Notes under the pieces: generated by a model
The model's database searches: none
What the model was told of the DNA's origin: nothing
The model's input: the letters and a program-made list of their open reading frames with translations, nothing else
DNA from: Polyangiaceae bacterium
GTDB taxonomy: Bacteria > Desulfobacterota > Binatia > UTPRO1
NCBI GenBank assembly: GCA_031400185.1
Contig: JANNPN010000460.1
Span: forward strand, 1-60,646
Direction of reading: 5' to 3'
Length of the DNA: 60,646 nucleotides
Made by a program: the position numbers and the translations under genes
Shown here: positions 16,741 through 21,828 of the stretch, piece after piece
How the letters are laid out: every line of letters starts with the position of its first letter
How positions within the stretch are numbered: position 1 is the first letter of the stretch

Positions 16741-16744
<4 letters not shown>

Positions 16745-18036
16745 CGCGTGAACCTCCCCTGAAGATCACCGTCAATGACGCGGCCGCCGAGACAGACCGC
16801 GAGCGCTCGCCCGCGCATGGCGCGGGCGGTAAACGGCGTGTTGCGGCTCCGCGAGCGGAACCGTGTCGGGTCGACCGTCCAGCGCGCGTCGGGATCGATC
16901 AACGTGATGTCGGCGATCCGCCCGGCCGCGAGGCTGCCGCTGGCGATGCCGAGCGCGGTCGCGGGGCCGACGGTGAGCGCGCGAATCGCCGTCGCGACCG
17001 CGAGCAGCCCGGCGTGGACCAGCGCCAGCACGAGCGCGAGCGTCGTCTCGAGGCCGACGATGCCGAACGGCGCGTCGTGCATCCCGCGCGCCTTCTCGTC
17101 GGCGTGGTGGGGTGCGTGGTCCGATGCGATCGCGCCGATCGTACCGTCGGCGAGGCCGGCGCGCACGGCGGCGACGTCGGCGTCGGTCCGGAGGGGCGGG
17201 TTCATCTTGGCGAGCGTGCCGTGCTGCGCGACCGCGTCCGCGTCGAGGGTGAAGTGATGCGGAGTCGCCTCCGCCGTAATTCGCGTACCGGCGTCCCGGG
17301 CCGCGCGGACCGCGGCGACGGCGTCGCGCGTGCTGATGTGCGCCACGTGGAGCCGCGCCCCGGTCTCGCGTGCGAGGGCGCAGTCGCGCTCCACCATGAC
17401 GCTCTCGGCGGTCGGAGGCATGCCGGGGAGACCGAGACGATCGGCGACCGGACCCGCATGCATGACGCCGCCGCACGCGAGCGTTCGGTCTTCCTCGTGC
17501 GCGATCACGACGGCGCCGACCTCGCGACCACGAAGCAGCGCGCGCCGCATGACGTCGGGGTGCATGATCGGCATGCCGTCATCGGAGAACGCGACCGCGC
17601 CCGCGGCGCGCAGCGCGACGAAGTCGGTGAGCACCTCGCCGGCAAGCCCTCTGGTGACGGCGGCGATGGGCAGCACGCGCGCGAGCCCGGCTTCCGCGGC
17701 GCGCGCGATCATCCAGCGCGTGATCTCCGGATCGTCGTTCACGGGCGATGTGTTCGCCATCGCCGCGACCGTCGTGAACCCGCCGGCGACGGCCGCCGCG
17801 GCGCCGGTCGCGATCGTCGCCTTGTGCTCCTGGCCCGGCTCCCGGAGATGGACGTGCATGTCGATCAAGCCGGGGGTGATCCAGAGCCCATGCGCGTCGA
17901 TCGCGGCGCGCGCCGGCGGCGGGTCGTCGGTCGTCACGCCGACGATGCGGCCGGCGTCGACCAACACGTGCGCGACGCCATCCAGCTCGCATGCCGGGTC
18001 GAGCACGCGACCGCCGCGGATCACGAGGTCGATCAC
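16741..18036 (-). CDS. pyrC: Dihydroorotase (type I, multifunctional-complex type)
   Basis: [29 protein letters not shown] and IASDHAPH. Confidence 0.95.
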
Positions 18037-19979
18037 GCCGCGACCTTCGGGTCGACGTACGAGTAGATGACCACGCGATCGCGGTGCTCGCGGTCGAGCT
18101 CGCGGAGGCGCACGCGCACGCGCTCGTGCGGTGCCGTCGGCAGGTGCTTCCCGACGTACGTGGGCTTGAGTGGGAGCTGCCGATGGCCGCGGTCGATCAA
18201 GACCGCGAGCCGCGCGGAACGCGGCCTTCCCGCGCGCCAGACGGCCGCCAGAGCGTCCTTCACCGTCCAGCCGGTGTTGATGACGTCATCGACGACGACG
18301 ACGTGGCGGTCCTCGATCGTGACGCTGCCGGTGTCGGTCCCTTGTGTCGCCGGCCAGCGCGGGATCGTGTCGCCACCGCCCTGCACGTCGAGCACCCCGA
18401 GGTCGACCGCGGCGCCCCGCATCACGCGAATGCGCTCGACGATGCGATGCGCGAGAAAGGCACCCGCGGTGCGGATGCCGACGATCACGAGCTCCTTCAG
18501 CTCACTCGTGTCGCGCAGGATCGCGTCGGTGAGCTCGGCGATCGCACGGTCGACTTCCTGCGCCGTCATGATCGATTTCTGCGGACCCAGCTTGTACGAC
18601 TTGTACGCGGCCTCTTCGGCCTGCTTCACGGTGTCGAAGATGACCAGCGCGTCGTCGCGGAGCCACGCGTCGAGGTAGCCGAACATGGGCTCCTCGTAGA
18701 CGTGGAAGTGCTTCGACTTGCGGTTGCCGATCACCTGGATGCGGGTCTCATGGTCGCAGTAGAGACAGACGAGGTGCGCGCGCCCGCCGGCTTCGCGGTG
18801 GAAGCGGAAGCGGCGCTCGGACGTCACTTCTTCCCGACGCGTAATACAGTTGGGGTTGCTGCACCGCGGCCCGATGCGCATGGCGCCGCGCTCGGCGCGC
18901 GCCGGCGGCACCGAGACGCCGCGTCCGGCGCGCTCGGCGAGCACCATCTCGATCAGCGCCATCCGGATGGGGACACCCGACGCGGCTTGCCGGAAGTAGA
19001 GCGCGCGCGGGTCGCGGTCCATCGCCGACGAGATCTCCCCCGTCCGCGGCAGCGGGTGCATGAGGACCGTGTGGCGCATCGCCGGGTCCTGGAACGTGTC
19101 GGTGTCGATGCGCAGGTACTCGACGCCGTCGTCGGTCGAGTCGTCGCGCCGCTCGCGCTGTGGCCGCGTCATGTAGAGCGCGTCGAGCGTGATCGGCTCG
19201 GCTTCGGCGAGGCGTTCTTGCAAGTCGAACTCGGTGTCGGTGAACAAGGTCAGCTGGTGCGGGCGGGCCGGTGCCAGATAAAGCGCATTGACGTCGCGGG
19301 CGAGCGTCTTCAGATCGCTCGGCCGCGCGATCGTCGGCCGGTAGCCGTATTCCTCCGTGACCTTTTGCAGCAACCAGTCGGGAAACTCCATCCCGCGCGC
19401 CGGGATGATGACGATGTTCGCCTTGAAGCGGGCCAGTGCGCGGACGAGCGAATGCGCCGTGCGGCCGCGCTTCAGATCCCCGCCGATCGCGACCGTGATC
19501 CCCCGGAGCGTGCCCTTCGCACGCTTCAACGTGTAGAGATCACAGAGGGTTTGCGTCGGGTGCTCGTGGCTGCCGTCGCCCGCATTGATGAGGGAGACGT
19601 CGGCGTGCTCGGCGGCGACGCGCGCCGCGCCGTCCCAGAAATGGCGGAGCACGAGGATGTCGGCGTAGCTCGAGACGACCTTGGCGGTGTCAGCGAGCGT
19701 CTCGCCCTTGGACGCCGACGAGCTCTTCATGTCGGACGCGCTGATGACGGCGCCGCCGAGGCGCCACATGGCGGCCTCGAAGGAGAGGCGCGTGCGCGTG
19801 CTCGGCTCGTAGAACAGCGTCGCCATGATGCTGCCGGTAGCGCTCCGCGGGATCTTTCCGGCGCCGGAATCCGGCGCCTGGGATTCCGCGAGCGCGGTCT
19901 CCAGCTCCTAGGCGCGGCGCAGGAGGCTCTCGATCTCCTCGTCGGAGAGGTCCGCGAGGGCGAGCACGTGGCGGCTCAT
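18033..19979 (-). CDS. pyrB: Aspartate carbamoyltransferase fused to PyrI-type Zn domain, Ada-like module and PyrR-like PRTase domain; in-frame TAG at codon 24 (19908-19910)
   Basis: MSRHVLALADLSDEEIESLLRRA*ELETAL...GSIMATLFYEPSTRTR is one continuous frame. ATCase motifs STRT, SKGET, LRH, HPTQ, GRT, TRPQ and HPLP are present. These are followed by CSNPNC...CLYC (18756-18863) and then a PyrR-like domain with VVVVDDVINTGWT and LIDRGHRQLP (about 18057-18575). Confidence 0.9.
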
Positions 19980-19989
19980 CGGAGAGCCT

Positions 19990-20523
19990 TCATACGAGCG
20001 CGACTTCGTCGCGGCCGTCGAGCTCGCGGACGCGGACGTGCACGCGTCGAAGCTCGGTGCCGGCGACGTTCTGCCCGACGAAGTCGGCTCGAATCGGGAC
20101 CTCGCGGTTGCCACGATCGACCAGCACCGCCACCTGGATCGCGCGTGGCCGCCCGAGCCCGGCGAGGATGTCGAGCGCGACCCGCACCGTGCGGCCGGTC
20201 GAGAGCACGTCGTCGACCAGCACGACCACCGCGTCGTCGATCGAGAACGCGACGTCGGTCTCCGGACCCTCGATGCGGTCGCGCGGCTCTTCCACGTCGT
20301 CGCGATACGGCGTGATGTCGATCGCCCCGACTGGGACGACTCGCGCCGCGAGCTCCTCGATCTTTTGCGCGATGCGGTGAGCGAGCTGGACCCCGCGCGA
20401 GCGGACGCCGACCAGCACCACGCGCTCGACGCTCCGGTCGCGCTCGAGGATCTGGTGCGCGAGGCGCGCAACGGCACGCCCGATGGCGCCGCCATCGAGG
20501 AGGATCGCAGGCGATTCCGACAC
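19990..20523 (-). CDS. pyrR: Pyrimidine operon attenuation protein / uracil phosphoribosyltransferase
   Basis: RLAHQILER, VGVRSRG, IDITPYRDD, VLVDDVLSTGRT and VDRGNREVPIRADFVG. Confidence 0.93.
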   Translation of the reverse strand: MSESPAILLDGGAIGRAVARLAHQILERDRSVERVVLVGVRSRGVQLAHRIAQKIEELAARVVPVGAIDITPYRDDVEEPRDRIEGPETDVAFSIDDAVVVLVDDVLSTGRTVRVALDILAGLGRPRAIQVAVLVDRGNREVPIRADFVGQNVAGTELRRVHVRVRELDGRDEVALV

Positions 20524-20544
20524 TATCGGGACTCGCGAGACACG

Positions 20545-20578
20545 AAAAAGCCCTCCCGACCGGAGCCGGGAGGGCTTT
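20545..20578 (-). terminator. Rho-independent attenuator terminator in the pyr leader
   Basis: Minus strand reads AAAGCCCTCCCGGC-TCCG-GTCGGGAGGGCTTTTT, a long GC stem plus U tract 21 nt upstream of the pyrR start. Confidence 0.9.
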
Positions 20579-20619
20579 CGAACGAGTAAAAACGGAACGT
20601 GGAGAGGGTCACCGGACCG

Positions 20620-20654
20620 ACCTTTCCTGACCTCGGAGGGTCAGATTAAAAGGT
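20620..20654 (-). ncRNA. PyrR-binding RNA element (anti-antiterminator)
   Basis: Minus strand reads ACCUUUUAAUCUGACCCUCCGAGGUCAGGAAAGGU. It has the CUUUAA...AAAG lower stem and a GACC-CUCCGA-GGUC upper stem-loop resembling the ARUCCNGNGAGGYU consensus. Confidence 0.82.
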
Positions 20655-20662
20655 ACATGGAA

Positions 20663-21159: not shown

Positions 21160-21828
21160 TCAGCCGCCGAACCAGCTCGGGTGGAAATACCGGAGCAGCC
21201 CCGTAACCGCCAGGCCGCCGAGGAGAACTACCGGCCCAAGCTCTCGAATTCCCTCGAGTGTTCGGTCGCCTGTGAACGGGATGAAGGGGGTCTCGCGGTA
21301 GAACGCCGCGAAGCCCGGCGGGCCGGTGACGAGCTTTCGGCGGTCTTGGTGCCAGCAGCCGACGAGTGCAAACAGTGGAAATCCCGCGAAGAAGGAGGCG
21401 ACGTCGGCGGCGTTGCCGTTGGGGATGAGGTGCAGCAGGCCGAAGATCCCAAGACCCATGAACAGGGGGTGGCGCGTCAGTCGGAGCGCGCCCCGCGGCG
21501 TCGGGTCGCCCGGGACGATGTTGCCGGGACTCGGCCGAACGAGACCCGACACCACCAGAACGAACGCGACCACCATCCCGCCGTAGATCACCCAGCGGAG
21601 ACCGGTGCCGACCGGAATCGACCAGAGCAGCGGACCCGCATGCTTGTTCGCGAAGTACGTCCGGACGAGCGGCACGAAGAGCGCGATCGCGAGCACGGAG
21701 TACACCCCGAGGAAGGCGCTCTCCCCAAGCTTGGCCACCAAGGCGCGGCGGATGCCCACGCTCGAGAGCAGCATGTGACTGCCTCCGAACGCGAGCCACA
21801 ACGCGGTGATCGTAGCGGTCGCGGCCAT
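21160..21828 (-). CDS. NnrU family membrane protein
   Basis: FGGSHMLLSS...R..LV..LGE..FLGVYSVLA; LRLTRHPLFMG; HQDRRK; TPFIPF. The start could be as far upstream as 21864. Confidence 0.8.
   Translation of the reverse strand: MAATATITALWLAFGGSHMLLSSVGIRRALVAKLGESAFLGVYSVLAIALFVPLVRTYFANKHAGPLLWSIPVGTGLRWVIYGGMVVAFVLVVSGLVRPSPGNIVPGDPTPRGALRLTRHPLFMGLGIFGLLHLIPNGNAADVASFFAGFPLFALVGCWHQDRRKLVTGPPGFAAFYRETPFIPFTGDRTLEGIRELGPVVLLGGLAVTGLLRYFHPSWFGG

Follow-up and report, generated by a model that had tools for sequence, protein, structure and literature searches.

Why does a pyrimidine operon carry, next to a stand-alone gene for the regulator PyrR, a second PyrR-like domain at the tail of an enzyme? 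This question is raised by contig JANNPN010000460.1 of assembly GCA_031400185.1, a Polyangiaceae bacterium placed by GTDB in the Binatia (Desulfobacterota; UTPRO1). The stretch analyzed here, positions 1 to 60,646 of the forward strand (60,646 nucleotides), is referred to as the window. On its minus strand, the pyr operon runs from a leader through pyrR and a fused gene of 648 codons to pyrC, carA, and carB. According to Pfam and NCBIfam, the product of the fused gene is composed of a catalytic chain of aspartate transcarbamoylase (ATCase), a PyrI_C zinc domain, about 40 residues without a family, and a phosphoribosyltransferase (PRT) domain derived from PyrR. An earlier sequence-only reading had proposed that the fused PyrR copy has lost the RNA-binding face and kept the loop for phosphoribosyl pyrophosphate (PRPP), and that the two copies divide the work, one as attenuator and one as ligand sensor or uracil-salvage enzyme. 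Our analysis confirms the first proposal across the whole family. As to function, we consider it slightly more probable than all alternatives taken together (roughly 0.55) that the fused domain is a PRT pseudo-enzyme, which would act as a nucleotide-sensing regulatory module of ATCase and hang from the zinc domain.

Identity of the fused PRT domain

The interval first assigned to the fused copy, 18057-18575, corresponds to residues 469-641 of the 648-codon frame on the minus strand; the domain as delimited here extends to the last codon (Table 1). It matches Pfam PF00156 (E 2.3e-15) and the NCBIfam PyrR model NF003549, scoring 148.8 bits with the latter against a cut-off of 138, while an HGPRTase model reaches 39.9. 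Four other PyrR models stay under their cut-offs. Solved PyrR chains from the PDB align to the domain with 113-120 bits. The stand-alone PyrR of the same operon scores 195.5 bits with NF003549 and up to 175 bits with the PDB chains, and the two PyrR-type sequences of the window share about 37% identity.

Loss of the RNA-binding signature and retention of the pocket

RNA-binding roles were reportedly ascribed to T18, H22, R27, R141, R146, and K152 of PyrR by Savacool and Switzer in 2002. A review (PMC7430163) briefly summarizes the roles of the RNA-binding residues and describes a PRT site that takes UMP/UTP and GMP/GTP with opposite effects. We compared 70 canonical PyrR cluster representatives with 101 full-length fused proteins, all aligned to one reference. 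The residue register was taken from HMMER alignments to solved PyrR structures and is given in B. subtilis numbering.

The stand-alone PyrR of the window shows the motifs RAVARLAHQILER, GVRSRGV, DITPYRDD, VVLVDDVLSTGRTVR, and DRGNREVPIRADFVGQN. It retains the helix-1 pattern R-x-x-H-x4-R (RLAHQILER) together with DDVLSTGRT and PIR, such that R19, H22, R27, YRDD, and R146 are all present. It differs from the B. subtilis protein at DRGNRE (H140N) and VGQN (K152Q), window positions 20068-20118, two sites that are unchanged in the fused copy. The fused copy itself carries T18A, R19E, H22D, R27D, and R146K with R141 and K152 kept, and its flexible loop has changed from DITLYRDD to DVQGGGDT. The motifs quoted in the sequence-only reading are thus all present, and the alignment of both copies to PyrR, which it had suggested as a check, bears out its contrast between them.

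This pattern is not a peculiarity of the window. Position 19 is R in 61 of the 70 canonical proteins and in only 5 of the 101 fused ones, which mostly show E, A, or Q. H22 occurs in 41 canonical proteins and in none of the fused set, where 72 members have D or E. At position 27, R or K in 41/70 stands against D or E in 99/101. The net charge of helix 1 accordingly drops from 0.0 +/- 2.0 for the canonical proteins to -3.8 +/- 1.5 for the fused ones. The Tyr of the flexible loop is found in 53/70 versus 0/101 and its Arg in 67/70 versus 5/101, while position 146, an R in 40 canonical proteins, is K in 95 fused ones.

The nucleotide site reveals the opposite tendency. No fused domain departs from the acidic pair DD, TG.T, D-R-G-H-R, R141, or K152. 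In residue numbers of the fused protein, this comprises D564, D565, V566, G570, and T572 of the ribose-5-phosphate loop as well as D596, R597, G598, H599, R600, P603, P606, and K611 of the hood, each without exception in the 101 domains. A new Arg, located five residues downstream in the flexible loop, is conserved in 94 of them; the loop therefore appears remodelled rather than simply degenerate. A further change is restricted in distribution: TGRT has become TGWT in 57/101 fused domains, the clade of the window. We conclude that the loss of the helix-1 and loop signature with a kept pocket is confirmed and clearly exceeds chance.

Two distant fused proteins, P0129 and P0241 (29-39% identity over the tail), possess an F/YRDD loop and TGRT and do not show the helix-1 Arg/His pattern. 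This suggests that the RNA face may have been altered earlier than the loop.

Selection, origin, and spread

Ratios of nonsynonymous to synonymous substitution (dN/dS) were estimated by NG86 over 28 close pairs. The ATCase part yields 0.10, the zinc domain 0.14, and the PRT domain 0.13, compared with 0.14 for stand-alone PyrR. The connector between zinc and PRT domain shows 0.024, the lowest value of the whole protein. Thus, the PRT domain is maintained by purifying selection. Within it, helix 1 (0.21) and the flexible loop (0.27) both exceed the value of the whole domain: PyrR's RNA and catalytic signature is the most relaxed part.

A quick maximum-likelihood tree was built from 120 PRT domains. 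A branch with SH-aLRT support of 86-90 (96 for the core clade) separates off every fused domain, including distant members in which YRDD or FRDD is preserved. Stand-alone PyrRs encoded next to the fusions are placed within the canonical PyrRs. With the fused clade set apart from these, the fused domain represents an old separate lineage rather than a recent copy of the neighboring pyrR, and a recent duplication is rejected on this quick tree. The notion of two paralogs in one operon, understood as a local duplication, has therefore to be given up in favor of one old fused clade.

The fused layout was found in more than 500 metagenome proteins, with Binatia, 'Deltaproteobacteria', Methylomirabilota, and others among the names in their record titles. 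All members of the family come from uncultured soil and groundwater lineages; present annotations label them as 'ATCase catalytic subunit' or 'PyrR'. In our class sample, 20 of 61 genomes contain the fusion, and all 20 have a second, canonical PyrR match. At the level of gene order, the gene immediately upstream of the fusion is a canonical pyrR in 25/25 related genome loci.

We also considered whether a free zinc-PRT regulatory chain occurs. Two candidate proteins, P0125 and P0123 (313 and 327 aa), have their start, MALI/MALL, within the final helix of the ATCase domain, and genome G086 has an open frame of 313 aa, where its relatives have open frames of at least 650 aa. These candidates were rejected because they resemble gene calls in which the fusion has been truncated or frameshifted.

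ATCase, zinc domain, and connector

The domain is joined to the only ATCase that the genome encodes, whose catalytic residues are intact. Its catalytic part scores 255.3 bits with TIGR00670 (cut-off 236.95), and the active site is kept in 101/101 fused proteins (STRTR, K91, R112-H113, H140/Q143, R173, R272/Q274, and HPLPR). For the full chain, AlphaFold2 gave a mean pLDDT of 77.9 and a pTM of 0.67, with most of the PRT domain at 90 or above; Foldseek matches of the resulting model are ATCase catalytic chains (TMt 0.88). The aspartate-binding half of the domain contains an extra segment at about residues 229-262 (window about 19190-19295). There, Pfam breaks OTCace in two, and pLDDT falls below 50 at residues 229-251 and 259-262. 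The segment may be an additional contact element.

The zinc domain matches PF02748 with 36.3 bits (cut-off 23.4), and its four cysteines C373, C378, C405, and C408 are invariant in alignments of the fused family. A model of zinc domain plus connector was matched by Foldseek to the zinc domain of the E. coli ATCase regulatory chain (probability 0.95, rmsd 2.0 A over 42 columns, E 0.16). The connector has no Pfam family in a search of the fused protein, and its VKQAEE and GPQ are invariant among 24 sequences. Its assignment as an Ada zinc domain could not be shown, given the missing Pfam match and a Foldseek comparison with the Ada N-domain (1wpk) of E 3.8 and probability 0.20.

The partner domain which the zinc domain carries in PyrI is missing. 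No match to the PyrI allosteric domain PF01948 was obtained in the fused protein, in the genome, or in the 61 genomes of the class sample; the search was positive for 7 of 14 control genomes. As the domain is absent from all 61 genomes, the zinc domain must be old in the lineage; a replacement of a local pyrI by the fusion has no evidence in its favor, PF01948 being absent from 61/61.

The fused domain as a regulatory module of ATCase

According to our best reading, the zinc domain bears the PRT domain where the allosteric domain of PyrI would sit. The 'ligand sensor' of the sequence-only reading should accordingly read 'regulatory domain of ATCase', because the domain is tethered through a zinc domain to the sole ATCase and no PyrI allosteric domain exists. 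A division of labor, with free PyrR on RNA and the tethered domain on ATCase, would be the simplest account of the two copies. The proposed split between them holds on the attenuator side, where the stand-alone copy has canonical motifs and a leader with terminator, and on the fused side in so far as the signature is lost and the pocket is under selection.

In mechanistic terms, the stand-alone PyrR would control transcription of the operon, and the fused domain would no longer bind the leader RNA. Instead, its ligand would be a ribose-5-phosphate compound; the example of PyrR points to UMP/UTP versus GMP/GTP, and PRPP or (p)ppGpp are further possibilities. The signal would reach the catalytic chain via the zinc domain, which is the docking part of PyrI in E. 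coli-type ATCase. Should the PRT domains pair in the PyrR manner, three pairs could bridge two catalytic trimers in a manner resembling (c3)2(r2)3, here with a single kind of chain. On this basis, we tentatively suggest, at a confidence clearly below that for the regulatory role itself, a further architectural class of ATCase in Binatia and relatives: a self-contained hexamer of one chain kind, bridged by PyrR-derived pseudo-PRT dimers that the ancestral PyrI zinc domain and the Cys-less connector attach to it, in which UMP/UTP versus GMP/GTP control might replace that by CTP versus ATP in the E. coli enzyme. If this is true, one ligand logic would be used twice per operon, on RNA via free PyrR and on the enzyme via the tethered copy.

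Several observations weigh against the regulatory reading. The order of domains, zinc followed by sensor, is the reverse of the order in PyrI. In 54/101 fused domains, the clade of the window, the pyrophosphate (PPi) loop KTRG has become RTAG together with the change from TGRT to TGWT. Both Arg residues contact phosphate, and their replacement could mean weaker nucleotide binding. The signature itself is less sharp than the counts may imply, as T18 and H22 are not universal in canonical PyrRs and the stand-alone PyrRs of the Binataceae show K or M/R there. Finally, taken over its entire length, the fused domain has a higher isoelectric point than canonical PyrR (median pI 8.0 versus 5.6), and it contains a conserved Arg-rich strand, RVRVRLRELDREHRD, besides the retained R141 and K152 and a K at position 146. 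These basic features leave room for RNA binding via another surface.

Alternative explanations

The fused domain might be a working uracil phosphoribosyltransferase (UPRTase), the salvage enzyme of the cell, for which ATCase is no more than a carrier. UPRTase activity is a property of canonical PyrR. A genome search found no Upp; the acidic pair of the PRPP motif, TG.T, and DRGHR are invariant; and the newly conserved Arg of the flexible loop (94/101) could be seen in the same light. However, a full-length Upp match (PF14681) occurs in just 2 or 3 of the 61 class genomes, and this near-absence is irrespective of the fusion. Because nearly the whole class lacks Upp with or without the fusion, its absence is no specific argument for a salvage role, and the idea that the fusion makes up for a missing Upp is not supported. 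Uracil salvage in the class, if existing, probably depends on PyrR-type proteins. The fusion is always accompanied by a canonical PyrR in which RSRG, YRDD, and TGRT are intact, and this protein could provide the activity. In the clade of the window, moreover, the Arg of the PPi loop is replaced by Ala, the Arg of TGRT by Trp, and the Tyr-Arg of the flexible loop by Gly. Salvage would also leave the PyrI zinc domain and the strong constraint on the connector unexplained. We therefore regard the uracil-salvage option of the sequence-only reading as without specific support and, on balance, unlikely.

Somewhat lower still do we place a structural role, in which the domain would join catalytic trimers as an oligomerizing module, ligand-free and non-regulatory. 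PyrR proteins form dimers, tetramers, or hexamers, and the strong conservation of zinc domain and connector would fit such a role. A merely structural module is hard to accept, since the invariant ribose-5-phosphate residues are hard to explain without a ligand: DD, TG.T, and DRGHR persist in all 101 sequences even though the remaining domain drops to about 40% identity.

A more elaborate possibility is that the fused domain heterodimerizes with free PyrR, such that ATCase sequesters or releases the attenuator and ties the state of the enzyme to transcription. PyrR is an obligate oligomer, and the fusion and canonical pyrR strictly co-occur and adjoin at all loci and in all genomes counted above. 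An ancestral pyrR-pyrB gene order explains this adjacency equally well, though, and the low identity of the two proteins (about 37%) speaks against mixed dimers, which makes this explanation quite improbable.

Least probable of all appears continued binding of RNA, be it the pyr leader or another one, by a remodelled surface that couples ATCase to attenuation or translation control, since the invariant R141 and K152, Lys at 146, basic pI, and Arg-rich C-terminal strand have to be set against a family-wide charge reversal at three helix-1 positions, a single PyrR-type leader per operon located ahead of the canonical pyrR, and the position of R141 and K152 in the hood beside the nucleotide site, where their retention needs no RNA.

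The operon, its leader, and an in-frame stop codon

The coordinates of the operon features are collected in Table 1. The start codon of pyrC and the stop codon of the fused gene overlap in GTGA, and carA and carB come next.

Table 1. Features of the pyr locus in window coordinates
Feature	Position	Strand	Basis
pyr leader	20542..20657	minus	Rfam RF00515 match
Stand-alone canonical pyrR, 177 aa	20523..19990	minus	NCBIfam NF003549, PDB PyrR matches, tree
Fused gene pyrB::Zn::connector::PRT, 648 codons + stop	19979..18033	minus	Translation; Pfam OTCace_N, OTCace, PyrI_C, Pribosyltran
ATCase catalytic chain, residues 1-350	18930..19979	minus	TIGR00670, Foldseek, intact catalytic residues
In-frame TAG, codon 24 of the fused gene	19910..19908	minus	Translation; whole-genome copy identical
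PyrI-type zinc domain, residues 368-428	18696..18878	minus	Pfam PF02748, four Cys, Foldseek
Cys-less connector, residues 429-468, LVIFDxVKQAEEAxYKxYKLGPQ	18576..18695	minus	Conservation, dN/dS
PyrR-derived PRT domain, residues 469-648	18036..18575	minus	Pfam PF00156, NCBIfam, PDB matches
Fused helix 1, RAIAELTDAILRD, former RNA-binding helix, now acidic	18548-18510	minus	Alignment, net charge
Fused PPi-loop region, GIRTAGA	18479-18459	minus	Sequence
Fused flexible loop, remodelled, DVQGGGDTIPRW	18389-18354	minus	YRDD gone, conserved Arg 5 residues downstream
Fused PRPP / ribose-5-phosphate loop, VVVVDDVINTGWTVK	18302-18258	minus	Invariant residues
Fused hood motif, DRGHRQLPLKPTYVGKH	18194-18144	minus	Invariant residues
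pyrC (dihydroorotase)	18036..16741	minus	ORF list and sequence

The leader lies just before pyrR and is composed of a PyrR-binding loop, CCUUUUAAUCUGACCCUCCGAGGUCAGGAAAGG, followed by a strong intrinsic terminator, GCCCUCCCGG...UCGGGAGGGC, and a U run. It aligns to the full RF00515 model (1-115) with 46.4 bits, under the gathering score of 54, and with E 1.9e-05 on 351 nt. At the gathering score, Rfam has no match in the window, such that the PyrR leader shows at an E-value threshold only. Among the related loci, an RF00515 leader was identified upstream of pyrR in L010 (57 bits), L017 (53.4), L008 (46.4), and L003 (42.7), one per operon. In the more distant fusion-bearing operons of the Binataceae (L019, L022, and L024), no leader was detected upstream of pyrR at E <= 1. 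The stand-alone PyrRs of these three loci are without H22.

Codon 24 of the fused gene is an in-frame TAG in the window and thus affects the only pyrB of the genome. A Logan contig (L002), 99.9% identical over 4.78 kb, carries GAG (Glu) at this codon (position 2683), and the fused frame is open in all relatives, same-genus genomes included. The TAG is probably a consensus or assembly error or a minor variant. Besides this site, just two differences separate the Logan contig from the window, an indel of 3 nt at 21393-21395 within an NnrU-like gene and a substitution at 17819 in pyrC.

Comparison with known systems

The example by which textbooks usually introduce allosteric feedback is ATCase with its PyrI subunit. 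The fused protein resembles the class B enzymes PyrB6-PyrI6 (E. coli 1d09, 3mpu; M. jannaschii, P. abyssi) in its full catalytic active site, in the four-Cys PyrI_C domain, and in a domain of nucleotide-binding type joined to it, binding being predicted in our case. The expected logic, feedback on the committed step of pyrimidine synthesis, would be alike as well. In contrast, it is one polypeptide, has a PyrR-type PRT fold in place of PF01948, places the zinc domain before the sensor, and possesses an extra conserved connector. Catalytic and regulatory-chain sequences on one polypeptide are also known from PyrBI of the Thermotoga maritima type (NF009916). That type, however, includes the whole PyrI with its allosteric domain, and the fused protein reaches 94 bits with the model, by its catalytic part only, against a cut-off of 800.

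With PyrR itself (B. subtilis 1a3c, B. caldolyticus 1non, M. tuberculosis 1w30), the domain shares the fold, the acidic pair of the PRPP motif, TG.T, DRGHR, and the location in a pyr operon. It differs in not being free, in the acidic residues at R19/H22/R27, in the loss of YRDD, in the change of R146 to Lys, and in forming an old clade of its own; in the fused clade of the window, the Arg residues of the PPi loop and of TGRT are replaced in addition. In B. subtilis PurR and haloarchaeal GfcR, a type I PRT fold serves to bind PRPP or nucleotides instead of catalyzing a reaction. The GfcR model matches the fused protein weakly (E 5e-05). The PRT domains of these two regulators control DNA-binding domains, whereas the partner of the fused PRT domain is an enzyme. 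A full-text literature search found no paper on an ATCase-PyrR or ATCase-zinc-PRT fusion.

If the regulatory reading is true, the sensor half of PyrI would be exchangeable, with the zinc docking domain kept and combined with a different nucleotide-binding fold. The fused protein would then make signal transmission across the zinc domain accessible to study in a new system. In addition, it would clearly exemplify the reuse of an enzyme-derived, RNA-binding regulator as the regulatory domain of another enzyme, and since the original regulator is retained alongside, the two copies can be compared directly.

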